DNA of 64,000 nt from Thermoanaerobaculia bacterium. Its GTDB lineage: Bacteria > Acidobacteriota > Thermoanaerobaculia > Gp7-AA8. Within the stretch, counting starts at the first letter, position 1, and every line of letters begins with the position of its first letter. Made by a program: the position numbers and the translations under genes. The DNA lies in contig DASYUK010000480.1 in the NCBI GenBank assembly GCA_036001325.1, forward strand, positions 1,033 through 65,032, read 5' to 3'. The notes beneath the pieces are model-generated. The model was not told where the DNA came from and ran no database searches. It saw only the letters and a program-made list of their open reading frames with translations. This document shows positions 6,233-61,166 of this stretch, piece by piece.

Positions 6233-6238
6233 GATGAT

Positions 6239-6321
6239 GGGTCGTAGGTCGTAGGTCGTAGGTGCCGTGGGCCTTTTGGCGCTGAGGCCCCGATACCTAC
6301 GACCCACGACCTACGACCTAC
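6239..6321. repeat. long imperfect palindrome built from (GTCGTAG)3 ... (CTACGAC)3 arms with an inner GGGCC/GGCCC hairpin
   Basis: Direct reading: gggtcgtaggtcgtaggtcgtaggt...acctacgacccacgacctacgacctac; overlaps the ddl stop codon; sits between two minus-strand genes. Confidence 0.8.
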
Positions 6322-7400: not shown

Positions 7401-7412
7401 GTCTTCAAGGGT

Positions 7413-7497
7413 GTCAGGTCTTCAGTTTTCAGTTTTTTTCTACGACCATTGGATTTTTCCAAGACCGGTAGAAAAAAACTGAAAACTGAAGACCTGA
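7413..7497. terminator. perfect 31-bp inverted repeat (bidirectional terminator-like) with U/A tracts
   Basis: gtcaggtcttcagttttcagtttttttctac ... gtagaaaaaaactgaaaactgaagacctgac; lies between MCE gene stop and ddl start on the minus strand. Confidence 0.75.
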
Positions 7498-7503
7498 CCC
7501 CAT

Positions 7504-9036
7504 TTACTTCCCGATCGGGATGCTTCCGAGCAGATACTTCAAATCGTCGTCGCGCCAGCGGATGCCGCCGCCAATCGTGAAAGCGACGTCATTGAGCGGG
7601 TTGTCGACGCCCGCCGTCACAAAAAGGCGCGGCGTTTTCGGTTTCTCGCGCCGCAGCGTGTACTCGCCATAAGCGCGGAAGTGGGGACTGTTGTCGTAGC
7701 GCTGGCCGAAATCGAACGCTTCGCCGGTGAGCCGTACACGCGGATTGAACTGATAATCCGCGCCGACGCCGCCGGTGTTGTCGATCAGACCGACGCGCAG
7801 GCCGAGGTTATCGAGCAACCATCCCGCCTGCGCGGTGATGCGGAAGTCGCGATCGAATCGCGTCTCGTGCGTGATTGTCGTCGTCGTGATTCCTGTTGCC
7901 GGATTCGTCACGGTGAGAATCGTGTCTTTCTCGCGCTTGCGGCCGCGTGGATCGTCCGCGAGCTCGATGTTGTAGAAGCGGTTCCGATCGACATTCGGAA
8001 TCAATCGAAGCGTGGCCGCCGATCGCGAGCTGCCGCCGAAATTCTTGATTCCGTTCTGTTCCTTGTTGAGACCAGCCATGTAGTCGGCCTTCAGACCGAG
8101 GTCCATGCCGATCTTGCTCACGCGGCCGAGCGTGGTTCTCAGCTCGGTGACGCCCGTATCGACAGAAGCGAGAGCGGACGTGAGCCGCTCGTGCGCTTCG
8201 GGACTGTAGATCAGCTTCCCGACAGTTCCCTGGCCGCTCTTCACCTGGCCGGTGATGTCGTTCAGGTTGGTCGTGGTGATCTTCAAATCGGCGGAGAGCG
8301 TCCGCAGGTTTTCGACGACGCGGCGCAGGTCCTCGCGATTCTCACCGACTGTGCCGCCGATCTGATTGGCCACACGATCGAGCGACGCGGCCAGCTTGGG
8401 GATCTCCATGCGCAGGTCCGCCGTGATCGCGCGCATGTTGCCGACGGTAGCGTCGACGTTCGCGCGGTTCGCGGCGATCAACTCGCGCGTCTCGGCGGTG
8501 ATCAGCCGGACGTTCTCGACGATGTCCTCGAGCCTCTCTTGGCCGCCCGGTCCCGCCATCACGTGCCGCAGAGATTCGGTGATCGCTTTCACGTCGGCGG
8601 CGATGAGTGAGATCTGATTCGTCACGTCATCGATCGATGCCGGCGAGGTTCCTCGCAGCGTCACGGTCACCTGCGGCGGCATCGCCGGCGCGTTCTGCGT
8701 TCCCGGATCGAGCTCGACGTATTTCTCGCCCAGGAGACCGAGGTTCGCGACGTGCGCCGAAGCGTTGCTGCGCATCGGGACGTCGTCATCGATCTCCAGC
8801 GTCACTTCCGCTTTCCCGTTCGGGAGCAGCCGGATCTTCGACACTTTTCCCTTGCGCACGCCGGCCACGCGCACGGCTGATTTCTCATCGAGACCGGCGA
8901 CATTGTCGAAGATCACCTTGACCTGGCGCGTCCCTTTGCCGCGACTGATGTCGATGTCCTCGATCTTCAGGATGAAGTAGCCGAGGATGCCGAGGATGAT
9001 CAGCATGAAGACGCCGACTTTGGCTGCTGGTGACAT
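7504..9036 (-). CDS. MCE/MlaD-family protein with long C-terminal extension
   Basis: N-terminal TM plus MCE domain (VKVIFDNVAGLDEKSAVRVAGVRKGKV); about 350 aa extension ending in beta-strand-rich region with terminal aromatic-rich segment. Confidence 0.8.
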   Translation of the reverse strand: MSPAAKVGVFMLIILGILGYFILKIEDIDISRGKGTRQVKVIFDNVAGLDEKSAVRVAGVRKGKVSKIRLLPNGKAEVTLEIDDDVPMRSNASAHVANLGLLGEKYVELDPGTQNAPAMPPQVTVTLRGTSPASIDDVTNQISLIAADVKAITESLRHVMAGPGGQERLEDIVENVRLITAETRELIAANRANVDATVGNMRAITADLRMEIPKLAASLDRVANQIGGTVGENREDLRRVVENLRTLSADLKITTTNLNDITGQVKSGQGTVGKLIYSPEAHERLTSALASVDTGVTELRTTLGRVSKIGMDLGLKADYMAGLNKEQNGIKNFGGSSRSAATLRLIPNVDRNRFYNIELADDPRGRKREKDTILTVTNPATGITTTTITHETRFDRDFRITAQAGWLLDNLGLRVGLIDNTGGVGADYQFNPRVRLTGEAFDFGQRYDNSPHFRAYGEYTLRREKPKTPRLFVTAGVDNPLNDVAFTIGGGIRWRDDDLKYLLGSIPIGK

Positions 9037-10991: not shown

Positions 10992-11015
10992 CATAACCGA
11001 GGACCGAGGACCGAG
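10992..11015. repeat. tandem heptamer (CCGAGGA)x3 immediately upstream of galU start; same 24-mer recurs at 45898-45925
   Basis: aaccgaggaccgaggaccgaggac identical at both loci. Confidence 0.8.
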
Positions 11016-11079
11016 GACTGGTGGTTGACACAGAACTTGCTTTGGCGGAATGACGTACTACTATTCTGAACTGCAGGCG

Positions 11080-13841: not shown

Positions 13842-14516
13842 TCAATGGACGTAGGTGTCGGTCTGAATGTCCTTTCGCGATTGCACGATCGAAGTCGCCA
13901 GCACGACGCGCCGGCCGATCTCTTCCCACTGTTGCGTGCGAACCAGATCGGGCATCGCGAGAGAAGGACCGAGATTCACAGCGACGCAGCCGGCGTCGAG
14001 GTAGGCATCGATCATGTCCAGCGGCACCGGACCGCCCGCAAGCATGGGGATGTCGCGAATCGGTCCGCGGATCGTGCGGATGTAGTCAGGGCCGCCGAAG
14101 AATTGTGCGGGGTAGACCTTGACGATGTCCGCTCCCGCTTCCCAGGCGCGGATGATCTCGGTCGGCGTTGCCGCGCCGGCGATCGAGAGCAGATCATTCT
14201 CGAGCGCGTACTCGATCACGCGGACGTCCGTGTGCGGCGAGACGATCGCTTTCGCCCCTGCCCGCCGCGCCGACGCGGCGTCATTCGAGCTGCGCACCGT
14301 TCCGGCGGCAACGATGACGTCGTCTCGAGCGTACTTTTGGGCGATGTGGGAGATGAGATCGAAGGCGTCGGGCGAGGTCAGAGTGATCTCGACGATCGAA
14401 ATCCCGTTGCGCGCGTACGCATCGGCGACGGCGCGCGCCGCGGCGGCACTATCCTCTCGTACCACCCCGATAATCTGTTCGGAGCAGACGCGCTCCAGGA
14501 GCTCTTTTCGTGACAT
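13842..14516 (-). CDS. eda: KDPG/KHG aldolase (2-dehydro-3-deoxyphosphogluconate aldolase)
   Basis: TIM-barrel aldolase motifs ...GISIVEITLTSPDA...VAAGTV...KVYPA... Confidence 0.85.
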   Translation of the reverse strand: MSRKELLERVCSEQIIGVVREDSAAAARAVADAYARNGISIVEITLTSPDAFDLISHIAQKYARDDVIVAAGTVRSSNDAASARRAGAKAIVSPHTDVRVIEYALENDLLSIAGAATPTEIIRAWEAGADIVKVYPAQFFGGPDYIRTIRGPIRDIPMLAGGPVPLDMIDAYLDAGCVAVNLGPSLAMPDLVRTQQWEEIGRRVVLATSIVQSRKDIQTDTYVH

Positions 14517-14577
14517 GAAGCGTAATTAGGTTAACACGCGACATGCGCTAAGCTGTTGCCGCCCACGGAGGTCGCTC

Positions 14578-15552
14578 ATGGCCCTGGTCAACAAAGCCAT
14601 CAACGAGGTCACCGTCAAACTGGTCTATTACGGTCCCGGTTTGTGCGGCAAGACCACGAACCTCGAGAAGATTTACGGAAATCCGAAGCTCGAGAACAAG
14701 GGAAAGATGATCTCGATGGCCACCGAGACCGACCGGACGCTCTTCTTCGACTTCATGCCGATGGAGCTCGGCACGGTCGGCGGTCAGAAGGTGCGCGTAC
14801 AGCTCTACACCGTGCCCGGACAGGTCTTTTACGACGCGACGCGCAAGCTGGTGCTGCGCGGCGCGGACGGCGTCGTCTTCGTTGCCGACTCGCAGGACAC
14901 GATGCGCGAGTCGAACCTCGACAGCCTCGAGAACCTGAAGACGAATCTGCGTCTCAATCGCCTCGATCCGGAGAAGGTGGCGATCGTCTTTCAGTACAAC
15001 AAGCGCGATCTGCCGAACGTCGATTCGGTCGATGACATGAACGCATACCTCAATCCGGGAACCGCGCCGGTCGTCGAGGCGGCGGCGATTTCCGGAATGG
15101 GCGTGACGGCGACGCTGCGCGCCGCGATCGCGAAGATTCTCGAGAACCTGAAGCACAACGTCGACACGACACTGCACGATCAGCCGGAGCTTGCCGCACC
15201 GGACATGAAGGCGAAGTCGGGCGTGACGTCCGCTTCGGCCGGAACGCCGAAACTCTCGATGCGGACGGAAGGCGGAACGCGCACCGAAGCGCCGGCCACG
15301 CCGGCCAAGACGCAAGTGGGAACGCGTCCCGTTCCGGCGCCATCGCCGGCATTCGTCGCGCCGGTCCTCGATGAAGAAGATCCGTTCGCCGATGCCGCTC
15401 CCGCGTCTCCGCAGCCGCAGACCGGCAATGGTCGCGCGGACATCGAGTCCATGCTGGCCAGCACCCGCGAGATGATCCGCGCGCTGGAAGTGGCGCTCGA
15501 GAAAGCAAAGCAGAACGAACGATCGCTGGCGGAGAAACTTGGCCGCCTGTAG
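14578..15552 (+). CDS. mglA: MglA-family Ras-like GTPase with ~130-aa Ala/Pro-rich and coiled-coil C-terminal extension
   Basis: N-terminal 190 aa align closely with MglA (KLVYYGPGLCGKTTNL, TETDRTLFFDF, LYTVPGQVFYDA, VFVADSQ, QYNKRDLPN). Confidence 0.85.
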   Translation: MALVNKAINEVTVKLVYYGPGLCGKTTNLEKIYGNPKLENKGKMISMATETDRTLFFDFMPMELGTVGGQKVRVQLYTVPGQVFYDATRKLVLRGADGVVFVADSQDTMRESNLDSLENLKTNLRLNRLDPEKVAIVFQYNKRDLPNVDSVDDMNAYLNPGTAPVVEAAAISGMGVTATLRAAIAKILENLKHNVDTTLHDQPELAAPDMKAKSGVTSASAGTPKLSMRTEGGTRTEAPATPAKTQVGTRPVPAPSPAFVAPVLDEEDPFADAAPASPQPQTGNGRADIESMLASTREMIRALEVALEKAKQNERSLAEKLGRL

Positions 15553-15555
15553 TCG

Positions 15556-17040
15556 ATGACCCTTCGCGTCCCGCTGGAGCATTACCCCGGGTTCAACCGG
15601 TTTGTCATCGACTGGCTTCATGGCGACGCGCGATTTCTTCCGCGCACGGAACACAAAAAACGCGCGCGAATGATCGACGCAACGCTCGTCGAAGCGCTCG
15701 CCGACTCCAACCATCGCTGGGGTCTCTCCGTCAAAGACGATTTGCAACGCTGGGCGCGAGGCCAATCGATCACGATCGTCGGCGGCCAGCAGGTGGGCTT
15801 TGGCGGCGGCCCGCTCTATACGTTGGCGAAGATCGCGTCGCTTCTGAAAATGAAACGCGATCTCGAGCGCAGCGGCACGCCGGCGACCGTGCTGTTCTGG
15901 CTGGCCAACGAAGATCACGACTTCGACGAAGTAGCGCAGCTTTGCGCGCCCGTGCGCAATCGCCAGCTCGATCTTCACTGCATGCGCGCGTCACGGAGCG
16001 GGCAGTCGAAGCTCGCTGTCGGGCGCGTGCCGATTCCTGAGGCGCTCATCACGGAATTTCTCGCCTTCTATGAGATCGAACGGCCATCGTGGCTGCGCGA
16101 AGGAATCGACTTCGGCGATTCGTTCGCCGAGCTGGTCGCGAGCATCTTCGGCAGCGAGATCATCCTCGTCGATGCGCTGCTGCCGGAGCTGCGCCGCGCC
16201 GGGAAACCGTTGTTCGATTCAATCTTCGCGCAATGGCAGGACATCGAGCGAGCGATCGCGAATCGATCGCGCGAACTGATCGACGCCGGGTACTCGCCGC
16301 AGGTGCTGCCGCGCGACGCGGAGTCGTACTCGCTGCTCTTCGAGCTGGACGAGCGTTTCGAGCGTCATCTCGTCGATGGTCCGCGCCAGATCGTGCCTGA
16401 GCGTATCTCCACGACTGCACTGACTCGCCCCTTGCTGCAGGATTTCGTTCTGCAGCCCGACATTTTCATCGGCGGGCCGGCCGAGGTCGCCTATTACGCG
16501 CAGATTGCATCGCTTTACAAAATGCTGAACGTGCCGATGCCGCGCGTGGCGCTGCGCGGGCACACGCTCGTCGCGCCGAAGAGAGTCGTTCGTTTCATGG
16601 AACGATACGAGATCAGGCCGGAAGAGGTCTTCACATCGCCCGATGACCTTCTCGCAGCGCGAGAGCCGGAAGGCGTCACGCAGATCCGGCGCGAAGCGGA
16701 GGCGGCGCGCAAAGATTTGATGAAGCGCATCGAGCGCATCGGCGAGCTCGCGCTTCCGGCCGAGCACGCGCTCGCGCGCGCCATCGCGCGCTCGATCGGC
16801 CACGTCGAGTACCACTTCAACAAACTCGCCGAGCGCGCCATCCGCGGGCTGGTGCGCAAAGACAAAGAACGATACGCTGCGACCAGGGAGCTTCTCGCGA
16901 CCTTGTACCCCGATCGTCATGTGCAGGACCGCGTCGTCGGCTGGTATGCCTACTGGCTCGAGTACGGACAACATCTCGTCGATTCGCTGATCGAAGAGAC
17001 CGAGCCCGATACGGCGTCGTTCAAAATCATCGGTCTATGA
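15556..17040 (+). CDS. bshC: bacillithiol biosynthesis cysteine-adding enzyme BshC
   Basis: 494 aa; conserved BshC/YllA N-terminal ...GGQQVGFGGGPLYTLAKI... region; 4 nt after mglA stop. Confidence 0.85.
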   Translation: MTLRVPLEHYPGFNRFVIDWLHGDARFLPRTEHKKRARMIDATLVEALADSNHRWGLSVKDDLQRWARGQSITIVGGQQVGFGGGPLYTLAKIASLLKMKRDLERSGTPATVLFWLANEDHDFDEVAQLCAPVRNRQLDLHCMRASRSGQSKLAVGRVPIPEALITEFLAFYEIERPSWLREGIDFGDSFAELVASIFGSEIILVDALLPELRRAGKPLFDSIFAQWQDIERAIANRSRELIDAGYSPQVLPRDAESYSLLFELDERFERHLVDGPRQIVPERISTTALTRPLLQDFVLQPDIFIGGPAEVAYYAQIASLYKMLNVPMPRVALRGHTLVAPKRVVRFMERYEIRPEEVFTSPDDLLAAREPEGVTQIRREAEAARKDLMKRIERIGELALPAEHALARAIARSIGHVEYHFNKLAERAIRGLVRKDKERYAATRELLATLYPDRHVQDRVVGWYAYWLEYGQHLVDSLIEETEPDTASFKIIGL

Positions 17041-17759
17041 GCCAGACGGTCGACCTTCTCTTCGTCGCCGCGCATGCCGATGACCTCGAGCTCTCCTGTG
17101 GAGGAACGATCGCCAAAGCGGTGAGCGATGGCACCGCGGTCGGCATGCTGGAGCTGACGCATGGCGAGATGGGAACGCGCGGCACGACGCAGACGCGAAA
17201 GCGCGAGGCGAAGAAGGCCGCGCAGATTCTCGGTGTCGCGTTTCGCGAGCATCTCGATTTCGGCGACGGCGGCCTGCGCACAGGTCGCGACGAGGAGATG
17301 CAGTTGATCGAATTTCTCCGCCGCGCGCGGCCGAAGCTCGTTTTCGCGCCCTGGCCGGATGAGCGCCATCCCGATCACGTGCGCACCGGCAAGATCGTCA
17401 CCGACGCCTCGTTCTACGCCGGTCTGCGGCAGATTCACACGAAGTTCGCCGCGCATCGGCCACAGGCAGTGATCTATTACATGCAGAATTACCTGCTGCA
17501 CCCGTCGTTCGTGATCGACGTGACGGATTCCTGGGAAACGAAGATGAAAGCGATCGGCGCTTTCCAATCGCAGTTCTTCAACTCGAAGTCGAAGGAGCCG
17601 CGAACGTTTGTTTCCGAACAGAGGTTCATGGAGATGATCGACGCCCGCGGCAAACATTTCGGCGGGCTGATCGGCGCCCGGTACGGCGAGGGGTATCTGA
17701 CGAAGCGACCGCCGCGGGTGGATGATGTGATTGCGGCTTATGCGGGACGAGAGGTGTAG
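17037..17759 (+). CDS. bshB: bacillithiol biosynthesis deacetylase BshB (LmbE/PIG-L family)
   Basis: AHADDLELSCGGTIAK...HPDH motifs of LmbE-like deacetylases; ATGA-type overlap with bshC. Confidence 0.85.
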   Translation: MSQTVDLLFVAAHADDLELSCGGTIAKAVSDGTAVGMLELTHGEMGTRGTTQTRKREAKKAAQILGVAFREHLDFGDGGLRTGRDEEMQLIEFLRRARPKLVFAPWPDERHPDHVRTGKIVTDASFYAGLRQIHTKFAAHRPQAVIYYMQNYLLHPSFVIDVTDSWETKMKAIGAFQSQFFNSKSKEPRTFVSEQRFMEMIDARGKHFGGLIGARYGEGYLTKRPPRVDDVIAAYAGREV

Positions 17760-17767
17760 TCGTTTGT

Positions 17768-17818
17768 CGTTGGTCCCTGGTCGTTAGTCAACGACTAACG
17801 ACCAGGGACTAAGGACCA
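17768..17818. promoter_or_regulatory. 15-bp perfect stem-loop with outer stem sequestering the bshA Shine-Dalgarno
   Basis: ccctggtcgttagtc aac gactaacgaccaggg, flanked by tggtcc...ggacca that includes AAGGA 5 nt upstream of bshA ATG. Confidence 0.6.
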
Positions 17819-17819
17819 A

Positions 17820-18983
17820 ATGCGAATCGGCATCACCTGCTACCCCACCTTCGGCGGCTCCGGTGTCATCGCCACGGAGCTCGGCATCGCTCTGGCCCGG
17901 CAGGGCGACGACATCCATTTCATCAGCTACGCACTTCCGTCGCGTCTCAACATCCTGCTGCACGAGCGCGTGCACTTCCATGAAGTGACCGTCACCGCGT
18001 ATCCGCTTTTCGATCCCTATCCGCCGTACACGCTCGCGCTGGCGACGAAGATGGCCGAGGTGGCGGCGTACGAGAAGCTCGATGTACTTCATGTGCATTA
18101 CGCCATCCCTCACGCCATCAGCGCCTATCTCGCCAAACAGATCCTCGGCGCGCGCGATCTCAAAGTGATCACCACGCTGCATGGAACGGACATCACGCTT
18201 GTCGGTCGCGATGAGAGCTATCTCCCGATCACCAAGTTCGGCATCGAAGTGTCCGATGGCGTGACCGCTGTATCGCAGTGGCTGAAGAACGAGACCGCGC
18301 GCAATTTCGGTACGCAGAAACCGATCGAGGTGATCTCGAACTTCGTCGACCCCGATCGCTTTCAGCATCATCGCAGCGCGTTCTGTCACATGTTCGGCGC
18401 ATCGACCGACAAGCTGGTGTGCCACGTCTCCAACTTCCGTCCGGTGAAGCGCGTCATGGATGTGATCAGCATCTTCGAAAAAGTGTCGCGCGTGGTGCCG
18501 AGCCGTTTGATGATGATCGGCGACGGGCCCGATCGCTCGCGCGCCGAGGCCTATTGTCGCGAGCATCGTCTGCGCGATCGCGTCTTCTTCCTCGGCAACG
18601 TTCCCAACCTCGAAGAGATCCTCGGCGGCAGCGATTTGTTTTTGCTTCCGTCGGAATCGGAGTCGTTCGGTATGGCGGCGCTCGAAGCGATGGCGTCCGA
18701 GGTCCCTGTGATCGCTACGCGCGCAGGCGGGTTGCCGGAAGTGATCGAAGACGGAGTGAATGGATATCTTCTTTCGGTCGGCGACGTCGAGGTCATGGCC
18801 GAGCGCGCGATCGAGATCCTTTCGAACGACGACGTCGGGCGGAAAATGGGCGCGGCCGGCCGCGCCATCGCGATCGAGAAGTTCGCCGAAGAAAAGATCG
18901 TGCCGCGGTATCGGGAAATGTACGAACGGGTGCTCGACCTTGAGCCCTCTCCCACCGGGAGAGGGTGGCCGAAGGCCGGGTGA
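17820..18983 (+). CDS. bshA: N-acetyl-alpha-D-glucosaminyl L-malate synthase BshA (GT4)
   Basis: MRIGITCYPTFGGSGVIATELG... strong match to BshA; last ~13 codons are encoded by the repeat element. Confidence 0.85.
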   Translation: MRIGITCYPTFGGSGVIATELGIALARQGDDIHFISYALPSRLNILLHERVHFHEVTVTAYPLFDPYPPYTLALATKMAEVAAYEKLDVLHVHYAIPHAISAYLAKQILGARDLKVITTLHGTDITLVGRDESYLPITKFGIEVSDGVTAVSQWLKNETARNFGTQKPIEVISNFVDPDRFQHHRSAFCHMFGASTDKLVCHVSNFRPVKRVMDVISIFEKVSRVVPSRLMMIGDGPDRSRAEAYCREHRLRDRVFFLGNVPNLEEILGGSDLFLLPSESESFGMAALEAMASEVPVIATRAGGLPEVIEDGVNGYLLSVGDVEVMAERAIEILSNDDVGRKMGAAGRAIAIEKFAEEKIVPRYREMYERVLDLEPSPTGRGWPKAG

Positions 18984-19038
18984 GGGGCGCGCCCCTCATC
19001 CGCCGCTGCGCGGCACCTTCTCCCGCGGCGAGAAGGTT
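18944..19038. repeat. three-hairpin dispersed repeat element, copy A (forward orientation)
   Basis: ccctctcccaccgggagaggg / gggtgaggggcgcgcccctcatcc / caccttctcccgcggcgagaaggt; homologous copies at 23633-23734 and (inverted) 53519-53614. Confidence 0.85.
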
Positions 19039-21931: not shown

Positions 21932-23674
21932 ATGCGCTGGTCACGTTACTTCATCAACACCCTTCGCGAAGTTCCGGCGGACGCCGACGTCATCAGTCAG
22001 AAGCTGATGATGCGCGCCGGAATGATCCGCAAAGTCGCGGCAGGAATCTACACCTATCTGCCGCTGGGATTGCGATCGGTGAAGAAGCTGGAGGCCATCG
22101 TCCGCGAGGAGATGAACCGCGCCGGATCGGTCGAGCTGCTCATGCCGGCGGTTCAGCCCGCCGAGCTGTGGATGGAATCGGGCCGCTGGCAGAAATACGG
22201 GAAAGAGCTTCTGCGCATCAAGGATCGCCACGAGCGCGACTTCGTCTTCGCTCCGACGCATGAGGAGGTCATCACCGAGACCGTGCGCGACGCGATCTCG
22301 TCGTACCGGCAGCTCCCGGTGAATCTCTATCAGATCCAGACGAAATTTCGCGATGAAGTGCGTCCACGCTTCGGCCTCATGCGCGGCCGCGAGTTCATCA
22401 TGAAGGACGCGTACTCGTTCCACACCTCGGCCGAATCCCTCGACGAGGTTTACGGAGCGATGCGCGAGGCGTACACGCGCGTCTTTCATCGCTGCGCGCT
22501 CGATCACGTGCCCGTCGAAGCGGACACCGGAGCGATCGGCGGATTGGTGTCGCACGAATTCATGGTGCTCGCGCAGTCGGGCGAAGACGCCGTGGTCAGT
22601 TGTCCGGCGTGCAAATACGGCGCGAACATCGAGAAGGCGACGTCGAAGTTCTTCAGCGACGAGCCCGAGCCGGCGCCGATGCTGGAGATGGCGCCGCTGC
22701 ATACGCCGGGAACGCAGTCGATCGATGACGTCGGCCGCTTTCTGAACAAGCCCACATCGCAACTCGTCAAGACCCTCGTCTTCGAAACGGAGAACGGACC
22801 GGTGATGGTTCTCGTCCGCGGCGACCGCGAAGGCAACCTGGTGAAGATCAAGAACCACCTCGGCGTGGATATGCTGGAGATGTTGCCCGACAGCCGCTTC
22901 GAAGCGGCGACCGGCGCGCCGGTTGGCTACTGCGGTCCGGTCGGAACGAAATGCGCGCGCGTGCTCGCCGACGTATCGCTGAAAAACCGGAAGAACTGGA
23001 TCGTCGGCGGCAATGTCAAAGACACGCACACGTCGAGTGTGAATCCCGGCCGCGATTTTCCGGAACCGGAGTGGGGTGATTTCACCACCGTCTTTGCGGG
23101 CGATCCGTGTCCTCGCTGCGGCACGCCGCTCGAGATTTATCGCGGGATCGAAGTGGGTCACATCTTCAAGCTCGGGACGAAGTACTCCGACTCGATGCAT
23201 TGCGTCTTTCTCGACGAGAAGGGCGAGCGCCAGCCGATGATCATGGGCTGCTACGGACTGGGCATCGGCCGCACTGTCGCCGCCGCCGTCGAGCAGAGTC
23301 ACGATGACGACGGCATCATCTGGCCGATGCCGATCGCTCCGTTCGAGGTGGTCGTCACCGCACTCGGTCGCGAGGAGGCCGTCGTCCGCACTGCCAACGA
23401 CGCGTACGAAAAGTTACTCGCCGCCGGTATCGATGTGCTCTTCGACGATCGCGATGAGCGTCCCGGCGTGAAGTTCAAAGACGCCGATCTCATCGGCTTC
23501 CCGCTGCGCGTTGCCGTCGGGGCGAAGAGCCTGGCCAACGGTCAGATCGAGTGGAGTTGGCGCAAGGACCGGTCAAAACAACTCGGAGCGCCGGAGGATG
23601 TTGTGGCGCGAGTGGTCGAGGAAGTGAAGAAAGCCCTCTCCCACCGGGAGAGGGCGGCGCGGAGCGCCGGGTGA
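21932..23674 (+). CDS. proS: proline--tRNA ligase (bacterial type with editing insertion)
   Basis: 580 aa; class II aaRS motifs and anticodon-binding C-terminus; last codons overlap repeat copy B. Confidence 0.95.
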   Translation: MRWSRYFINTLREVPADADVISQKLMMRAGMIRKVAAGIYTYLPLGLRSVKKLEAIVREEMNRAGSVELLMPAVQPAELWMESGRWQKYGKELLRIKDRHERDFVFAPTHEEVITETVRDAISSYRQLPVNLYQIQTKFRDEVRPRFGLMRGREFIMKDAYSFHTSAESLDEVYGAMREAYTRVFHRCALDHVPVEADTGAIGGLVSHEFMVLAQSGEDAVVSCPACKYGANIEKATSKFFSDEPEPAPMLEMAPLHTPGTQSIDDVGRFLNKPTSQLVKTLVFETENGPVMVLVRGDREGNLVKIKNHLGVDMLEMLPDSRFEAATGAPVGYCGPVGTKCARVLADVSLKNRKNWIVGGNVKDTHTSSVNPGRDFPEPEWGDFTTVFAGDPCPRCGTPLEIYRGIEVGHIFKLGTKYSDSMHCVFLDEKGERQPMIMGCYGLGIGRTVAAAVEQSHDDDGIIWPMPIAPFEVVVTALGREEAVVRTANDAYEKLLAAGIDVLFDDRDERPGVKFKDADLIGFPLRVAVGAKSLANGQIEWSWRKDRSKQLGAPEDVVARVVEEVKKALSHRERAARSAG

Positions 23675-23734
23675 GGGGCTAGCCTCTCGCCCCTCATCTG
23701 CCGCTTCGCGGCACCTTCTCCCGCCGGGAGAAGG
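23633..23734. repeat. three-hairpin dispersed repeat element, copy B
   Basis: gccctctcccaccgggagagggcgg...gggtgaggggctagcctctcgcccctcatc...caccttctcccgccgggagaagg. Confidence 0.85.
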
Positions 23735-23761
23735 CTCTGAGCGGTCTGCTATCCTTTTCTC

Positions 23762-25153
23762 ATGCGCAAATTTCGTCTCATCGCGCTTTGCCTGCTCGCC
23801 GCGACCCCCTTGGCCGCGCAGAACACCGACATCGAGTCGCTCTCCGGCCTTCAATTCAACTTCGGCAATCCCGGCGCACGCTCCCTCGGCATGGGCGGCG
23901 CGTTCCTCGGCCGCGCCGACGATGCCTCGGCAGCCGAGGCGAATCCCGCCGGCTTGACGATTCTGCGGAAGCCGGAGATTTCGGTCGAGGCGCGCAACTA
24001 CGTTGAACAGCAGCTCTTCACCACGACCGGCACATACCCGGATGTGGTTAGAACGCCGTTCACGCACTACAGCGACCGCGTGTCGATCAGCTTCGCCAGC
24101 GCTGTCTATCCGATCAAGAACTTCACGATCGGTCTCTACTTCCACGAGCCGCTGAAGAACGCCGGCGGCGGCATTGTCTTCCCGAAGTTCGATCAGAACA
24201 CCGGCCGCATCGTGACGAAGACACCGAACTTCTATCTGCCGAGCGGGGGCGGCGCGCCGATGAGTCAGGCCGCCTGCGTACAACTTCGCATCGACACAAA
24301 GAATCCGGCTGCTTGCCTCGAGTATCGCGTCGACCCGTTCATTTCCGCGCTCGACGTTCGTCAGCGCACCTGGGGCTTCGCCGCCGGTTGGCAGGTCCTG
24401 CCGAAGCTTTCCGTCGGTGCGAACGTGCGCGCGCAGTTCTTCAAAGAGGGAGCATTCACGAGCCGGTACGACGGCGTAACCTTCGATCTGAAGAACATCT
24501 CCGTGCAAGCCACCGCCCGCGCCAACGGTACGGACGTGGAGCTGACCGAAGAGCGTGACATCACCTTCGGCCTCGGATTCAAATATGCGCCGACGGACAA
24601 AATCAGCGTCGGCGGCGTCTACAAGCAGGGGGCGCGCTTCGACGCGCCGACATTCTTCCTGGGCTCACAAACCGGAGGAGAGTTCCTCAAGGTTGCCGAC
24701 ACCGTCTTTCACAATCCCGACATCGCCGGCGTCGGTATTTCGTATCAGCCAATCCCTGTCCTGACGATCAACGCGGACGCCGACTACGTGAAGTATTCGA
24801 ATCTCGTCGACGATTTCGTCTCGGTCGTCGCCGATGTCTCCAGCCTCAACCAACCATTCGTCGCGAAGAACGTCACCGAACTGCACATCGGCGCGGAGTA
24901 CTTTTTCGCGATCAAGGTGCCCTTCGCGATCCGCGCGGGCTACTGGCACGATCCGGCGCACGCCGTCACATGGAATGGTCCGCTCACGCGCGCCGACTAC
25001 ATCGCCGAGGCGATGCTCTATCCGAAGACGCAGGATCAGAACCATTTCTCGATCGGCGGCGGCTTCGCCTGGCCGAAGTTCCAGATCGATTTCGCGTACG
25101 ACACGGCGAAGTACTACAAGGTTGGATCGCTATCGATGGTGACGCGCTTCTAG
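23762..25153 (+). CDS. outer-membrane beta-barrel protein (FadL/PorV-like)
   Basis: Signal peptide; N-terminal GNPGARSLGMGGAFLGRADDASAAEANPAGL motif; alternating beta-strand pattern; C-terminal ...VTRF. Confidence 0.6.
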   Translation: MRKFRLIALCLLAATPLAAQNTDIESLSGLQFNFGNPGARSLGMGGAFLGRADDASAAEANPAGLTILRKPEISVEARNYVEQQLFTTTGTYPDVVRTPFTHYSDRVSISFASAVYPIKNFTIGLYFHEPLKNAGGGIVFPKFDQNTGRIVTKTPNFYLPSGGGAPMSQAACVQLRIDTKNPAACLEYRVDPFISALDVRQRTWGFAAGWQVLPKLSVGANVRAQFFKEGAFTSRYDGVTFDLKNISVQATARANGTDVELTEERDITFGLGFKYAPTDKISVGGVYKQGARFDAPTFFLGSQTGGEFLKVADTVFHNPDIAGVGISYQPIPVLTINADADYVKYSNLVDDFVSVVADVSSLNQPFVAKNVTELHIGAEYFFAIKVPFAIRAGYWHDPAHAVTWNGPLTRADYIAEAMLYPKTQDQNHFSIGGGFAWPKFQIDFAYDTAKYYKVGSLSMVTRF

Positions 25154-30422: not shown

Positions 30423-30424
<2 letters not shown>

Positions 30425-30493
30425 TTTTGGATTTGCGATTTTGGATTTTGGATTGAGCCGAATCCAAAATCGAAAATCCAAAATCGAAAATGA
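30423..30493. promoter_or_regulatory. A/U-rich long imperfect inverted repeat of GATTTTG/CAAAATC units spanning the start codon of the downstream gene
   Basis: gattttggatttgcgattttggattttggatt gagccg aatccaaaatcgaaaatccaaaatcgaaaATG; no SD upstream of the ATG. Confidence 0.7.
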
Positions 30494-36291: not shown

Positions 36292-37470
36292 GCGCTTCCC
36301 ACGGCGACCCGCATCGCCGTTTACTGCTATCTCGCCCACATTCTCCTGCAGGGGAAAATCGCGCTCTCCGAGCTCGGCGTCGCGGCGACCCTGGCCGCCG
36401 TCGGCTGGGCGATCTCGCGACGCGAGCTGCGCCCGTCGTTTCACATCCTCTACTACCCGCTGGTGCTGTACGGCGTCGTCTCCACGCTTTCGGCGCTGGT
36501 GAATCATTCGTCGCGGCATCTGTTCGCGGAAAGCGCGCTGTGGCTGAAGATGCTCATCTTTCCAGCGGCGCTGATTCTTTTTCGCGAGGTACCGCCGCTG
36601 CGCGAGCTCGCGCTGCGCGCGCAGATCGCTTTCGCGACTGCGATCGCGGCGTTTGGCATCTACCAGTACTTCGTTCTGCAGCGACAGGATCTCGAGCATC
36701 GCATCACCGGCCCATCGACTCACGTGATGACGTATTCGGGTTTGCTCCTTCCGGCCTCGCTGCTGCTCGTCGTACTGGCGGTGCGTCGAAAACAGGCGTG
36801 GCTCTACGCGTGCGCGATCGTCGTTTCATTTGCCCTGCTGTTGACATTCACGCGCAGCGTCTGGCTCGGATGGATCGTGGCGATTCTCGCCGTCTTGACG
36901 CTGCGAAAGCCGCGTTGGCTGATCTTTGCCGTTCCGGTCTTGTTGTTCGGGCTGAGCTTCATGCCCGACTCGATGTTCGGTCGACTCGTTTCTTCGTTCG
37001 ACACGCGACAGTCGTCGAATCTCGACCGCATCCGGATGGCCGAAGCGGGTGTGGAGATGATCAAGGACCACCCCGTCTTCGGCGTCGGTCCGGCCAACGT
37101 GAAGGAGATGTATCCGCTCTATCGCCGCGAAGACGCGCCGCGCTTCCGCCCGCCCCACCTCCATAACAACATCATCCAGCTCTGGGCGGAGCGCGGCATC
37201 GGCGCGGTCATCGCCTACATCCTTCTTCTCGCGCTTTTTCTTCGCGAATGCGCGCGCGGCTGGCGCGGGCCGGCGCGCGAATTCGCCGAGGCGGGTGTGG
37301 CCATCACCGTCGGCCTGGCCTATGCGGGCCTGTTCGAGTTCAACTTCGGCGACACCGAAGTGTTTCTGATCATGCTCGAGCTGTTCGCACTCGTGATCGC
37401 CTCCATCGAAGCGGCCCAGCCTGCCACGAATGAACGGCTGCTGGTCATTGTTCCATCGGCGTCGGCGTGA
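36292..37470 (+). CDS. O-antigen ligase/Wzy_C-family polytopic membrane protein (start uncertain)
   Basis: Multiple TM helices and periplasmic loop motif LLTFTRSVWLG...; no ATG before 36550 so a non-ATG start or overlap with Trm112 gene is likely. Confidence 0.65.
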   Translation, partial: ALPTATRIAVYCYLAHILLQGKIALSELGVAATLAAVGWAISRRELRPSFHILYYPLVLYGVVSTLSALVNHSSRHLFAESALWLKMLIFPAALILFREVPPLRELALRAQIAFATAIAAFGIYQYFVLQRQDLEHRITGPSTHVMTYSGLLLPASLLLVVLAVRRKQAWLYACAIVVSFALLLTFTRSVWLGWIVAILAVLTLRKPRWLIFAVPVLLFGLSFMPDSMFGRLVSSFDTRQSSNLDRIRMAEAGVEMIKDHPVFGVGPANVKEMYPLYRREDAPRFRPPHLHNNIIQLWAERGIGAVIAYILLLALFLRECARGWRGPAREFAEAGVAITVGLAYAGLFEFNFGDTEVFLIMLELFALVIASIEAAQPATNERLLVIVPSASA

Positions 37471-37471
37471 A

Positions 37472-37557
37472 GGGTCGTCGGTCGTAGGTCATAGGTATCG
37501 GGGGCCTTATCGCCTGAATGCCCCCAGTACCCACGACCCACGACCCACGACCCAACC
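37472..37557. repeat. imperfect palindrome of (GTCGTAG)-like and (CCACGAC)3 units with inner GGGGGC/GCCCCC hairpin
   Basis: gggtcgtcggtcgtaggtcataggtatcgggggc...gcccccagtacccacgacccacgacccacgaccc; same unit family as 6239-6321. Confidence 0.75.
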
Positions 37558-45897: not shown

Positions 45898-45925
45898 GAA
45901 ACCGAGGACCGAGGACCGAGGACCG
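45898..45925. repeat. tandem heptamer (CCGAGGA)x4; second copy of the 10992-11015 motif
   Basis: aaaccgaggaccgaggaccgaggaccgacgac. Confidence 0.8.
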
Positions 45926-45929
45926 ACGA

Positions 45930-46145
45930 CTAAGGTTTCTTCTCGCTCTCCTGCACTGCGGCGATCGCGCCCTGGAAGCCGATCTTCGAGTGGGTGCCGT
46001 CGCAGAACGGCTTCGTCGTCGATCCACCGCAGCGGCAGAGTTTCGGTTTCTGCACCGGCACTTCCTGCCCCTGCGCGTCGATCAGTTTGAACTCGCCTTG
46101 AACGATGTAGGGACCATTCTCGGCGATCTTGATGGTGATGCTCAT
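45930..46145 (-). CDS. CDGSH-type iron-sulfur domain protein
   Basis: CRCGGSTTKPFCDGTH motif. Confidence 0.8.
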   Translation of the reverse strand: MSITIKIAENGPYIVQGEFKLIDAQGQEVPVQKPKLCRCGGSTTKPFCDGTHSKIGFQGAIAAVQESEKKP

Positions 46146-48956: not shown

Positions 48957-50021
48957 ATGAGCGAGCAAGCGACGGCCACAGGTGTCGTTCCCTCAGGGCC
49001 ATTCGTGGTCCGGGCGGTTCTGCGCACGGATGTCGGACGCGTTCGCTCCGAGAACCAGGACTTCGGGACGCTCACGACACCGGCCGAAGACAAGGGCGCG
49101 CATCCGGGCGGGCGGTTGATGATCGTCGCCGATGGCATGGGCGGGCATCGCGGTGGAGCCACGGCGTCGCGCCTCGCCGGCGAGACGATCAAGTCGTATT
49201 ACCTCGGCGGTGGAACCGACGATATCGCCGGCGCGCTTCGCGAGGCGTTGACACGCGCAAACTCGCTGATCTTCGCCGAGGCGCAGACGCATGCGGAATT
49301 GCACGGGATGGGAACGACGACTTCAGCGCTGGTCGTGCGTGGGAATGAAGCCTGGTTTGCGCACGTCGGCGACTCGCGCATCTATCTGATCCGCGGCGAT
49401 GAGATCAATCAGTTGACGGATGATCACTCGCTCGTCGCAACGATGGTCCGCGAAGGGTTGCTTACGGTGAAAGAGGCGGAGAATCATCCGCGACGAAACG
49501 TGCTCCAGAGATCGATAGGCGTCGGTGCGGAGGTGGAAATCGACGTGCGCGGGCCTCTCGAGGTGCAGCAGGGCGACACGTTCGTTCTCTGCAGCGACGG
49601 TTTGCACGGCCTCGTCAAACCGGAAGAGATCAAGGAGATCGTTGCGAACCGGCAGATCGAAGCGGCCGCCGACGATCTGGTCGATCACGCTCTCGAACGC
49701 GGCGCGCCCGACAACGTGACCGTGATCGTTGCGCGAATCGAGCGCGAGGATTTCGACGATGAGCCGACGGTCGTCGACCGCGAGCCTGATCGGGTAGCGT
49801 TCGACGATACGGTGCGGGAGGAGCGTCTCAGTGGAGCGCCGGTGTCCTCACCGGCGGTGCGTGACGCCGGTGAGGACACCGGCGCCCCACCGAGCACCGC
49901 CCCTCCCCGTCGCATCCGTGGATCAACGATCATCAAATGGATGTTGCTCTTCGTGGTCGTGCTCGGTGCGGCCGGCGCGTGGTTGTTCTTTGCCCAGCAG
50001 CAGATGTTTCATATCCGTTAG
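48957..50021 (+). CDS. PP2C-family Ser/Thr phosphatase with C-terminal TM segment
   Basis: RSENQDF, MIVADGMGGHRGG, CSDGL, ERGAPDNVTVIV motifs. Confidence 0.9.
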   Translation: MSEQATATGVVPSGPFVVRAVLRTDVGRVRSENQDFGTLTTPAEDKGAHPGGRLMIVADGMGGHRGGATASRLAGETIKSYYLGGGTDDIAGALREALTRANSLIFAEAQTHAELHGMGTTTSALVVRGNEAWFAHVGDSRIYLIRGDEINQLTDDHSLVATMVREGLLTVKEAENHPRRNVLQRSIGVGAEVEIDVRGPLEVQQGDTFVLCSDGLHGLVKPEEIKEIVANRQIEAAADDLVDHALERGAPDNVTVIVARIEREDFDDEPTVVDREPDRVAFDDTVREERLSGAPVSSPAVRDAGEDTGAPPSTAPPRRIRGSTIIKWMLLFVVVLGAAGAWLFFAQQQMFHIR

Positions 50022-50025
50022 TCAC

Positions 50026-51666
50026 ATGTCCCCGTCTCGCCATCTCCGCCTTTTAGCCATCGTTGCAGTGCTTGTGCTCTCGTGCCGAAACGACGCGGTG
50101 CGGCTCGACGAAGTGCAGAAGATGGCCTACAGCGTGAAGCCGGCCGTTGTGCGCGTGAACGCGCTCGGCACCGCCGAGTTCCGGTACACGAGAAAGTCGA
50201 TCGAATCGGTCGAGCGGCAGCTCCGCAGCGATCGACGAAACGTCACCGCACGGAATCTGCCGGATGGCGAGGCGGCAGTCGATACCGGTGCCGGAGGCTC
50301 AGGCAGCGGCTTCATCATCAATCCGGACGGCTACATCCTGACCAACGGCCACGTCGTCGCTCCGACGAGCGACAATGCCGCGCTCGATCGCGATCTGCGC
50401 CGCAATGGAGCCATCGCCGCGCTCGTCCGCCATTTCCCGGTCGAAGAGCTGCGCGCTCTCTATCGCGATGACGCGCTGGATCATTACATCGACATGCTCG
50501 CCGCCGCGGGTCATCTGTCCGATGTGCGCATCGTCAACGAAGTCGAGCTGTCGAACGGCGAGAAGCTGCCGTTCCGCATCGGACGTTACTCCCCTTCGCT
50601 CAGCGAGCGCGGCGCCGATCTCGCGCTGCTGCAGGTCAACCGGCGCAACTTGCCGGTACTTCGTCTCGGCGATTCAGAGACGGTGGGCGTAGGCGCATCG
50701 ATCTGGTCCGTTGGCTATCCGGCGGTCGCGAGCAGCACCGACGATGTGATCGGCGGATGGCTGTCGCGTGACAGCGATCTCGAAGCGACGTTCAACCCCG
50801 GCACGATCACAGCGATCAAGCGCAACGTCGCCAATGCGACGGTGTTTCAATCGAACGTCGCGATTTATCGCGGCAACTCCGGCGGTCCGGCGGTGAACCG
50901 CGAGGGCGAAGTCATCGGCATCTCCACCTGGGGACACACGAGCGCGGAGCAGATCAAGTTCCTCGTGCCGATCAACGCTGCGAAGTCGTTCGTCGCATCG
51001 GCGCGCGTGAAAGCAAACGTCGAAGGAGAATTCGATCGCTACTACCACGCGGCGCTCGACGCCGCCGCAGCGGGAGAGTGGAAATCGGCGAAGGCCAGTC
51101 TGGCCGATGCCTCGCGCCTCTTCCCGAATTCTCCCGACGTGATTCGCTTCAGCCGCGACGCCGACCGCGCGTTGACGCACGACTCGTCGTGGCCGGCGAA
51201 GTCGATCACCGTCGTCGCGGGTGGGGTCGGTTTCGTCGCCCTGATCGGAACGATCGCATTGGCGGCCGGCAGCAGGCGAACGCGCGTTCCCAAAGACGTC
51301 CTGACGGCGACGACGGTCGTCGAGACGCTCGTCGAGCCGTCCGATTCCACCTCGCGGAAACGAAATGTCATCGGGAAATTCACGATCCTGAATGGCGAGC
51401 GAGCGGGCGAGAAACTGGGCCTGGGCGGCTCGGGAATCCGCATCGGACGGGAGTCGGCGATCTGTGAGATCGTATTGGAGAATCCGAAGGTATCGCGTCT
51501 CCACGCCGAGGTTGTCTCGATCGACGGCAAGGTGATGTTGATCGACAGGAATTCCTCGAACGGAACCTACGTCAACGATGAAAAGATCGATCGGCGATAT
51601 CTCCAGGACGGCGACATCATCCATTTCGGCGGCCGCAACGCCATTGCGGTCGCCTTCCATGCGTGA
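50026..51666 (+). CDS. trypsin-like (S1C) serine protease with TM segment and C-terminal FHA domain
   Basis: GSGFIINPDGYILTNGHVV (His), GNSGGPAV (Ser) protease motifs; C-terminal IGRESAICEIVLENPKVSRLHAEV...SSNGTYVN FHA. Confidence 0.8.
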   Translation: MSPSRHLRLLAIVAVLVLSCRNDAVRLDEVQKMAYSVKPAVVRVNALGTAEFRYTRKSIESVERQLRSDRRNVTARNLPDGEAAVDTGAGGSGSGFIINPDGYILTNGHVVAPTSDNAALDRDLRRNGAIAALVRHFPVEELRALYRDDALDHYIDMLAAAGHLSDVRIVNEVELSNGEKLPFRIGRYSPSLSERGADLALLQVNRRNLPVLRLGDSETVGVGASIWSVGYPAVASSTDDVIGGWLSRDSDLEATFNPGTITAIKRNVANATVFQSNVAIYRGNSGGPAVNREGEVIGISTWGHTSAEQIKFLVPINAAKSFVASARVKANVEGEFDRYYHAALDAAAAGEWKSAKASLADASRLFPNSPDVIRFSRDADRALTHDSSWPAKSITVVAGGVGFVALIGTIALAAGSRRTRVPKDVLTATTVVETLVEPSDSTSRKRNVIGKFTILNGERAGEKLGLGGSGIRIGRESAICEIVLENPKVSRLHAEVVSIDGKVMLIDRNSSNGTYVNDEKIDRRYLQDGDIIHFGGRNAIAVAFHA

Positions 51667-52310
51667 GGGACAAAGTGGCCGATAAACGATGTGAGAACGG
51701 GCACTTTATCGACGAGTCGTGGGACCTCTGTCCTTACTGTCCGGCGGAGAGTGGCGAGCAGGACATCGCCGTCGTTCGTCCCGCGCGTGCCGTTCCTCCT
51801 TCAGCGCCGGCAGTGGAGCCCTCTCGACCGGTGACGGCAGTGCCGGGAGTGCCGCGGCGCCAGACTCCGCAGCCGGTGCAGGCTCCGCCGCCGGTCCAGA
51901 CTCCGCCGATGGAGCGAACGGTCGCGGTTCCGAAGGCCGTCGATCCCGCAGCGCAAACGAAGCGCTATGTCGTGGGCTGGCTCGTCGGCCTCAATGGCAC
52001 GAGCCGTGGCGAATCGTTCGCGATTCGCATCGGCCGCAATGTTCTCGGCCGCGACCGCCGCTCCGACATCGTGGTCAGCGACGATCAGGCATCGTCGCAT
52101 CACGCCGATCTCGTCTTCCGTCCCGAGGAGCGGCGTTTCATTCTGATGGATCACAACTCCACGAACGGGACGTATGTCAACGAAGTCGAAATCGAGCCGC
52201 GCCGCGATCTCATCGGCCAGGACGTCATCCGGATCGGCTCGCAGAAGTTTCTCTTCATGCCGCTGATTCAGGACGGCTTCTACTGGGACGATGAAGGTGC
52301 TCTGAAATGA
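51663..52310 (+). CDS. zinc-ribbon + Pro-rich linker + FHA domain protein
   Basis: CENGHFIDESWDLCPYCP ribbon; C-terminal IGRNVLGRDRRSDIVVSDDQASSHHADL...STNGTYVN FHA; ATGA overlaps on both sides. Confidence 0.75.
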   Translation: MRDKVADKRCENGHFIDESWDLCPYCPAESGEQDIAVVRPARAVPPSAPAVEPSRPVTAVPGVPRRQTPQPVQAPPPVQTPPMERTVAVPKAVDPAAQTKRYVVGWLVGLNGTSRGESFAIRIGRNVLGRDRRSDIVVSDDQASSHHADLVFRPEERRFILMDHNSTNGTYVNEVEIEPRRDLIGQDVIRIGSQKFLFMPLIQDGFYWDDEGALK

Positions 52311-53518: not shown

Positions 53519-53614
53519 CGCCTTCTCCCCGCGGGAGAAGGTGGCGCGAAGCGCCGGATGACGGGCGTGCCCCTCACCCGGCCGTGCGGCCACCCTCTCC
53601 CGGAGGGAGAGGGA
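53519..53614. repeat. three-hairpin dispersed repeat element, copy C (inverted orientation, middle hairpin degenerate)
   Basis: ccttctccccgcgggagaagg...ggatgacgggcgtgcccctcaccc...caccctctcccggagggagaggg. Confidence 0.8.
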
Positions 53615-53627
53615 ACTTGGAGTAACC

Positions 53628-59270: not shown

Positions 59271-61142
<1,872 letters not shown>

Positions 61143-61166
61143 ACCGGCCGGTTGAGAAACCGGCCG

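Follow-up and report, generated by a model that had tools for sequence, protein, structure and literature searches.

The subject of this work is a repeat at the 3' end of proS, the prolyl-tRNA synthetase gene, in a stretch of 64,000 nucleotides (further called the window) from contig DASYUK010000480.1 of a Thermoanaerobaculia (Acidobacteriota) metagenome-assembled genome. The repeat, copy B of a family with three members in the window (A, B and C), is probably an inverted pair of modules of the BoxC/PIT/TMECO type, known as "intrastrand triplex motifs", and a non-coding, extragenic palindromic repeat. It is an ordinary member of a repeat class that is very widespread. The variant present here is the hairpin-bridged form of the described class, found in a phylum without an earlier report and fused to two coding ends as a side effect.

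Between 23634 and 23734 the left part of copy B reads CCCTCTCCC-ACC-GGGAGAGGG / CGGCGC-GGA-GCGCCG / GGTGAGGGG-CTAGCCTCTCG- and the right part -CCCCTCATC / TGCCGC-TTC-GCGGCA / CCTTCTCCC-GCC-GGGAGAAGG (Table 1). Each half consists of a pyrimidine block (Y), a short loop 1, a purine block (R), a loop 2 and a third-strand block (R'). A first model-made description of this DNA, prepared from the letters and a list of open reading frames (the sequence-only reading), had given the sequence, the coordinates and the orientation (the same as that of copy A) as we found them. It had also spoken of a three-hairpin element, and here it had to be corrected: five hairpins (H1–H5) follow one another in each element, H2 and H4 having been overlooked. 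The minimum-energy fold of copy A calculated with DNA parameters consisted of exactly these five. With DNA parameters each half appeared as folded H1 and H2 with R' left single-stranded; only Watson–Crick folding was computed for the window halves. The "middle hairpin" of the earlier description corresponds to the two third-strand blocks placed face to face, with a constant G·T mismatch (GGGTGAGGGG/CCCCTCATCC). Copy B folded at -84.6 kcal/mol as RNA (z -7.8 versus shuffles) and at -43.5 kcal/mol as DNA (z -6.4 versus shuffles). A single long hairpin was thermodynamically competitive for copies B and C as RNA, yet it was rejected as the conserved structure because H1 (CCCTC/GAGGG) and H5 (CCTTC/GAAGG) were each compensated internally but mismatched to each other, and because H2 and H4 varied independently.

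Table 1. Window coordinates of copy B and its parts, of the two other copies and of the genes read into the repeat.
Feature	Position	Strand	Remarks
Copy B, whole element, probable inverted pair of triplex-motif modules	23634–23734	+	101 nt; half 1 on +, half 2 on -
H1	23634–23654	+	Y block CCCTCTCCC (23634–23642), loop ACC, R block GGGAGAGGG (23646–23654)
H2, mini-hairpin CGGCGC-GGA-GCGCCG	23655–23669	+	GNA triloop closed by C-G (DNA fold)
Third-strand block R' of half 1, GGGTGAGGG	23669–23677	+	contains TGA (23672–23674) ending proS
Central spacer CTAGCCTCTCG	23679–23689	+	11 nt; 4 nt in copies A (CGCG) and C
Third-strand block R' of half 2, AGATGAGGG read on - strand	23691–23699	-	counterpart in related contig L003: GGATGAGGG
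H4, mini-hairpin TGCCGC-GAA-GCGGCA on - strand	23699–23713	-	GNA triloop (DNA fold)
H5, with Y block CCTTCTCCC, a loop and R block GGGAGAAGG (half 2)	23714–23734	-	difference from H1 compensated inside the hairpin
Copy A	18945–19036	+	between convergent GT4 (bshA-like) and SLT genes
Copy C	53521–53613	- (inverted)	2 nt past TGA of kinase-FHA gene 52307–53518; 14 nt before ATG at 53628
proS, prolyl-tRNA synthetase, 580 aa	21932–23674	+	last 41 nt (12 codons + stop) inside copy B
GT4 (bshA-like) gene	17820–18983		tail PSPTGRGWPKAG and TGA (18981–18983) supplied by copy A

The motif 5'-CCCTCNCCC N3-6 GGGNGAGGG N3 GGGNGAGGG was named BoxC first (Bachellier, 1990s), PIT element next (Hoyne/Maher 2000) and TMECO last (Holder et al. 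2015, PMC4666352). TMECO is an intrastrand triplex sequence of the purine-motif type; its single strand forms a triplex in vitro according to circular dichroism and nuclear magnetic resonance (NMR), both sets of data covering short-loop E. coli TMECO oligonucleotides only (PMC4666352). In E. coli the TMECO/PIT sequences are intergenic and free of strand bias, possess neither promoter nor terminator activity and are not linked to mobile elements; their loci are unusually rearranged between strains, which was described as "genomic instability" (PMC4666352). MG1655 has 23 sites, five of them inverted pairs, and TMECO was reported only from 262 proteobacterial genomes (PMC4666352).

The likeness of the window elements to this class is close. 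Half 1 of A, B and C matches the consensus CCCTCNCCC...GGGNGAGGG...GGGNGAGGG exactly and has the blocks CCCTCTCCC, GGGAGAGGG and GGGTGAGGG in the same order as TMECO no. 1 (Table 1 of PMC4666352), one of the E. coli copies that share the H1 stem sequences of copy B. Loop 1 is 3 nt long in all six window halves, within the 3–6 nt of the class. When triplets were counted from sequence by purine-motif rules, R and R' were compatible with at most one mismatch in nine in all six halves (9/9 in four, 8/9 in two); in copy B half 1 scored 9/9, and half 2 scored 8/9 against its R block GGGAGAAGG. Frequent inverted pairs with facing third-strand blocks are a common trait as well, and the window layout is that of the E. 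coli hrpB–mrcB pair (164547–164631), located 13 nt past the hrpB stop, where 16 nt separate the two facing third-strand blocks. An unstable local sequence completes the resemblance. Short intergenic spacers, the usual place of the class, hold copy C, but A and B extend into coding 3' ends.

There are also differences. H2 stands where E. coli TMECO has its 3-nt loop 2; in the window halves loop 2 counts 12–14 nt (14–15 nt when the shared G/T is included) and forms a GC mini-hairpin with a GNA triloop, beyond the limits of the published searches (0–10 nt for PIT/Hoyne, 1–6 nt for ITxF/TMECO, consensus 3 nt; PMC4666352). Half 2 is an A-type variant (CCTTCTCCC/GGGAGAAGG/GGATGAGGG) that departs from the consensus at one position per block in a coordinated manner. 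The host belongs to Acidobacteriota, and copy B overlaps a coding 3' end. Short-loop halves of the E. coli type and hairpin-bridged halves were found joined in single elements (L008, L097, L098, L103 and L113; L numbers denote the collected loci), and therefore the two forms belong to one family. The palindromic repeats CCCTCTCCCXX(X)GGGAGAGGG of Enterobacter sp. 638, located at gene 3' ends and often in duplicate (Taghavi et al. 2010, PMC2869309), resemble the window element in their position and in a palindrome identical to H1; they differ in that they were described as hairpins and presumed terminators only, with no description of a third block or a bridging hairpin (PMC2869309). BLAST of the element against E. 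coli genomes returned only the 21-nt H1 match, and the bridged form was not detected there. The window gave no Rfam matches at the gathering thresholds; below them only microRNA-precursor (generic long hairpin) matches of at most 36 bits appeared, the thresholds being 78–168 for the five best. No tRNA or tmRNA genes were found.

Exactly three elements of approximately 92–101 nt were identified in the window by repeat finding and a relaxed census, the latter revealing no copies beyond A, B and C. The H1 pattern CCCTCTCCC-N3-GGGAGAGGG with up to three mismatches had six matches in the window, two per element, where shuffles expect 0.04. Copies A and B are oriented alike (forward) and C is inverted. 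In the alignment of the three (mean column identity 81%) copy B exhibited seven extra bases in the central loop, visible as a 7-column gap (CTAGCCTCTCG versus CGCG in A), which bears out the earlier notion of an insertion variant, in the centre, within a repeat family. Copy A has GGCC-GAA-GGCC as H2 where copy B has GGCGC-GGA-GCGCC, and at H4 copies A and B share GCCGC..GCGGC while C has GGCGC..GCGCC; both changes are compensated. The sequence-only reading had regarded compensated variation as direct evidence of selection on structure. The variation is indeed there, in H2 and H4 between the copies and in the 53 different H2 stems encountered across genomes; what it demonstrates is that palindromy is maintained, and selection on RNA structure does not follow from it.

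All three copies sit at gene 3' ends. Copy C is intergenic, whereas the last 39 nt of a coding region lie in A and the last 41 nt of another in B. Nearness to stop codons was rejected as a sign of targeting because the empty proS spacer is only 47 nt long, so any tolerated insertion falls near a stop. Judging from the relatives, in which the element either follows the stop or is missing, the overlap of A and B with coding ends appears to be secondary.

The proS gene ends ...KKALSHRERAARSAG*, its TGA lying inside GGGTGAGGG, and the corresponding protein tail is ...KKA-LSHRERAARSAG*. Public records annotate the window ProS as a 580-aa proline-tRNA ligase. The proposal that the first hairpin provides the ProS C-terminus stands insofar as the tail lies inside the element; it is encoded by H1, H2 and the first bases of the middle stem together. 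Among the 120 best ProS listed, the tail LSHRERAARSAG occurred only in P0001, the cluster holding the window protein. The other 119 lacked it, most of them being 566–575 aa long and typically ending ...EEVRKARV*. The sequence-only reading had asked whether proS orthologues end before the element: in L208, L006 and L004 the element lies past the stop, and in L209 and L128 the site is empty. The refuting case named there, a tail shared by orthologues, was not encountered among the 120. The GT4 gene reads H1 of copy A in a different frame than proS reads H1 of copy B. In L208, L210 and L211 the GT4 protein is 379 aa long, ends GERVGV* and the copy A site is empty; relatives with the empty site have 3–18 nt between the GT4 gene and the convergent SLT gene. 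Copy C, placed between two co-directional Ser/Thr kinase genes, is non-coding. The 12-residue ProS tail is probably tolerated and without function. For annotation, the ProS tail and the GT4 protein longer by 8 residues are by-products of a repeat that brings its own stop codon along in the GGGTGAGGG block.

The spacer between proS and the todX-like gene was compared in relatives ordered by the identity of their ProS to that of the window; a search of metagenomes for proS yielded five loci with at least 70% identity, too few for covariation, and look-ups of exact proteins served better. A triplex-motif pair was present in L004 (92%; 12 nt past the stop, H2, H3 and H4 all containing large inserts), L208 (91%; 1 nt past TAG) and L006 (90%; 6 nt past TGA, with the centre shortened). 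The site was empty in L209 (90%; TGA + 5 nt + GTCTGCTATCC) and L128 (81%). Different palindromes occupied it in L005 (94%), where the palindrome also supplies the ProS tail, in L210 (89%) and in L211 (88%), where the palindrome is of the GTCATCCTGAGG type and supplies the stop; L129–L131 (70–82%) contained other repeats. The ProS proteins of L006 (filled) and L209 (empty) are 99% identical to each other, and the last five proS codons differ. The element thus seems to have been gained in the proS–todX-like spacer within this lineage, some relatives lacking it and others carrying it 1–12 nt past an intact stop. Compared with L006, the window lacks 17–18 nt between ...GAAGTGAAGAAAG and CCCTCTCCC. 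Since L208, L006 and L004 have the element downstream of an intact stop, the simplest reading of the proS fusion would be a secondary loss of these 17–18 nt at the left junction, with the element already present, and not an insertion into the gene. The central spacer, the hypervariable part of the family, measures 1 nt in L006, 13 nt in L208 and 16 nt in the E. coli pair and is expanded in L004, and the centres differ among L004, L006, L208 and the window, a qualitative comparison made without control loci. Altogether, centre indels, altered flanks and gain or loss of the element suggest raised local variability between close relatives, as for TMECO.

Across the genomes examined, viz. at the proS locus in genomes with ProS identity of 70–94%, at least five unrelated palindromic repeat families were noted in the spacer, and the C-terminal tail or stop of ProS comes from three different families (in the window, L005 and L211). 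Native gene ends at the empty sites resemble blocks of the element (L209 11700–11720, L208 7060–7090, L210 7020–7060 and L211 7075–7105): the native proS end is ...GCGCGGGTGTGA as compared with GCGCCGGGTGAGG in the element, and the GT4 gene of L210 ends ...GGGGAGAGGGTGGGGGTGTAG, followed by GCGCGAAGCGCC, a GCGAAGC mini-hairpin. This resemblance could be a coincidence of GC-rich codons or reflect microhomology used in capture.

The bridge itself is a recurrent feature. Of 163 distinct loop-2 sequences of 9–30 nt from the collected loci, 95 contained a perfect stem of at least 4 bp (30/163 in shuffles), and 54 of these 95 bridging hairpins had a GNA triloop with a closing C-G pair, which in every case lay on the G-rich strand. 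The d(C-GNA-G) and d(GCGNAGC) sequences are known as extraordinarily stable DNA mini-hairpins (PMC13037366, PMC3201870). H2 and H4 are likewise C-GNA-G triloops on GC stems, and GGCGC-GAA-GCGCC recurs in copy C, L006 and many genomes; the difference is that d(GCGNAGC) is a structural motif and not a genomic element family, whereas here it links the parts of a larger repeat. When one genome per species was scanned for H1 ... GGTGAGGG with a gap of 8–38 nt, at least 120 stretches matched. The bridged motif was present in at least 12 phyla (80 loci listed), the loci listed coming from Acidobacteriota, Planctomycetota, Chloroflexota, Thermodesulfobacteriota, Verrucomicrobiota, Cyanobacteriota and Calditrichota, and also from Binatia, Ignavibacteria, Saganbacteria, Stahlbacteria and Alpha-, Beta- and Gammaproteobacteria. 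In L010, L018, L019 and L125 the H1-H2-R' of copy A was matched exactly except for the H1 loop. The bridged motif was also seen in predicted viral or proviral contigs (68 stretches; IMG/VR, L213–L280), with A-type halves on L232, L249, L261, L265, L266 and L273; viral contigs are a possible vehicle for the horizontal spread of the bridged motif.

The halves in the window differ at one position per block (CCCTCTCCC/GGGAGAGGG/GGGTGAGGG versus CCTTCTCCC/GGGAGAAGG/GGATGAGGG). The change is Watson–Crick-compensated in the hairpin and recurs at the mirrored position of the third block (A·A-T for G·G-C); this mirror-position change, expected from purine-motif triplex rules, explains the constant G·T mismatch of the middle stem, for which a model of hairpins alone has no explanation. 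Across the collected copies R7=A was accompanied by R'3=A in 19/19 cleaned copies (25/31 raw), as compared with 5/317 for R7=G (Fisher p = 5e-22 on raw counts of 25/6 versus 7/199, the sequences not being independent). R6=G went with R'4=G in 5/5 copies. When R was GGGAGGGGG, R'4 was G and R'6 was T or A in four of the five copies (GGGGGTGGG and GGGGGAGGG, twice each), i.e., a non-G base at the mirrored position. Asymmetric R blocks scored on average 8.08/9 as mirror images and 6.80/9 when read as direct repeats. Within the window population a T/C polymorphism was noticed at 23699, in the third-strand block of half 2, between the window and L003 (same population, JGI sample 3300036860); the L003 allele restores the 9/9 triplet match, versus 8/9 in the window.

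Several observations weigh against the assignment of copy B to the triplex-motif class or against the history proposed for it. Dimethyl sulfate footprinting detected no in vivo triplex for E. coli TMECO (PMC4666352), and loop 2 of 14–15 nt falls outside the limits that define PIT (0–10 nt) and ITxF/TMECO (1–6 nt). R4=G variants were matched by R'6=G in only two of six copies. The covariation counts refer to sequences, which are not independent events, and the widespread A-type half may represent one subfamily of old origin that has spread. The route of spread is not illuminated by the filled/empty comparison, which revealed no target-site duplications, nor by the seven flanking genes scanned, none of which had a transposase domain (the window was not otherwise screened for one). 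Lineages filled with triplex-motif pairs are not monophyletic on the ProS tree, and the order of events at proS may instead reflect independent insertion or recombination.

In mechanistic terms, the module on the G-rich strand comprises a 9-bp Y-loop-R hairpin, then a GC mini-hairpin with a GNA triloop as the connector, and then R', which as the mirror image of R could fold back to form a purine-motif triplex of the antiparallel kind (G·G-C, A·A-T, T·A-T). Tentatively, we propose that such a fold arises only for a short time, when DNA becomes single-stranded in replication, repair or transcription, and that it leads, through polymerase stalling, to slippage, deletion and recombination, with no role as a proS regulator; this has a reasonable chance of being correct, although the opposite is the safer assumption. 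Stalling and slippage at the fold would account for the indels that mark the centre and the junctions. In the window lineage the loss of 17–18 nt at the left junction would have taken the last codons and the stop of proS, so that translation would now run through H1 and H2 to the TGA in GGGTGAGGG, adding 12 residues. The element would otherwise be neutral at the proS site.

A function at the RNA level, in which copy B forms a very stable 3' stem-loop of the proS mRNA that terminates transcription or, what is more plausible, blocks 3'-to-5' exonucleases or acts as an insulator, seems unlikely to us, even though it deserves more attention than the other alternatives. The three copies all sit at gene 3' ends, as RNA they fold at -67 to -85 kcal/mol (z between -4.6 and -7.8), the sense RNA of copies A and B has a G·U wobble in place of the G·T mismatch, and the same palindrome is a presumed transcription terminator in Enterobacter sp. 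638 (PMC2869309). An insulator would separate proS from the downstream outer-membrane transporter gene. The RNA-level function as a whole is compatible with the reading at the DNA level. On the other hand, no sense-strand T-tract terminator was found at 23400–24000, the single terminator-like match being antisense; copy C is inverted relative to transcription, which turns the mismatch of the middle stem into A·C; and an RNA hairpin explains neither the GNA-triloop bias nor the third block obeying the mirror rule. Moreover, PIT elements show no terminator or promoter activity in E. coli and purine-motif triplexes do not form in RNA (PMC4666352). That the tail ...ALSHRERAARSAG is a genuine, selected part of ProS and its likeness to A and C secondary has practically no chance of being true: there is a continuous open reading frame annotated as a 580-aa proline-tRNA ligase, but the change of frame at copy A, the non-coding state of the same DNA at copy C, the restriction of the tail to P0001 among the 120 best ProS listed and the position of the element downstream of an intact stop in relatives refuted the coding origin.

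Mobility of a known kind offers another explanation. A MITE, or miniature transposable element with inverted repeats, was considered, H1 and H5 being inverted repeats, and it was rejected because no target-site duplication was seen in the comparison of filled and empty sites. In a REP/BIME/REPIN-type scheme, a REP-associated tyrosine transposase (RAYT) with its gene elsewhere in the genome would copy the palindrome doublet in single-stranded form, which we regard as improbable. Like REP doublets, the window element is an extragenic, GC-rich palindrome near gene 3' ends, arranged as an inverted doublet outside genes, structured as single-stranded DNA and able to adopt a cruciform or a single long hairpin; the occurrence of both filled and empty sites, with no target-site duplications, also fits. 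The absence of such duplications is expected for IS200/IS605-like chemistry. Yet the blocks are identical across phyla and include a third, mirror-repeat block, and REP families are normally species-specific. No RAYT is known for the element: none was present among the seven flanking genes scanned, beyond which no RAYT search was made, and a gene found once per genome could easily fall outside 64 kb. Its hairpins lack, at the ends of H1–H5, the GTAG or CGTC head which defines the two large REP superfamilies (PMC3733652), and E. coli TMECO is not associated with mobile elements (PMC4666352). A G-quadruplex built from the four G-runs of each half (GGG-AGA-GGG-[H2]-GGG-TGA-GGGG), with the hairpin in a long central loop, is very improbable. 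The sequence does fit the pattern G3N3G3-N14-G3N3G3, and a chair-type quadruplex would put R7 and R'3 in one tetrad, which would be compatible with their joint G-to-A change. A quadruplex, however, explains neither the always-attached complementary block Y nor the placement of T/A in R' mirroring the A positions of R, and the 18 imino signals in the NMR spectrum of the E. coli TMECO oligonucleotide indicated a triplex and not a quadruplex (PMC4666352).

The BoxC/PIT/TMECO sequences have been without an assigned function for approximately 30 years and were thought to be essentially proteobacterial and short-looped. The same stem blocks with GNA bridges are now found in Acidobacteriota, Planctomycetota, Chloroflexota, Verrucomicrobiota and other phyla. 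The pan-phylum range, the mirror rule and the GNA bridges provide a sequence-based argument, independent of the in vitro work, for a constrained triplex geometry. A fold of the G-rich single strand is suggested by the three-way covariation (Watson–Crick plus Hoogsteen-type) and by the GNA loops confined to one strand. It is conceivable, though doubtful, that the hairpin-bridged triplex module (Y-loop-R, GNA mini-hairpin, R') is a pan-bacterial element missed because of the earlier loop limits and that its G-rich fold is selected or recognised in vivo. If so, a conserved protein or a copying mechanism that reads the DNA triplex should be expected. The pan-phylum conservation and the three-way covariation are the part that merits follow-up.

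The surroundings of the three copies held further features. Copy A closes an apparent bacillithiol operon (window 14500–18983) with bshC-like, PIG-L/bshB-like and GT4/bshA-like genes, syntenic with L208 3621–7082. Around copy C lie two adjacent Ser/Thr kinase genes, 52307–53518 with a C-terminal FHA domain and 53628–55388, Pfam-confirmed; in window 49800–55400 coding motifs of kinase-like and FHA-like kinds (families D3 and D4) recur around the kinase genes. The window also contained a second repeat class, i.e., hairpins or arrays with arms of tandem heptamers, the heptamer differing by site (6235–6318, 37468–37524, 30424–30491, 10995–11018 and 45900–45937). Examples are (GGTCGTA)3...(TACGACC)3, ATTTTGG-type arms versus AATCCAAAAT-type arms, and the direct array (ACCGAGG)3 at two sites; in L130 a heptamer-array palindrome lies exactly in the spacer downstream of proS. 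Three more long, intergenic-looking palindromes, at 7407–7504, 49827–49894 and 61123–61172, had arms of 37, 30 and 29 nt (95%, 93% and 86% complementary, respectively) and a sequence unrelated to the triplex-motif element.

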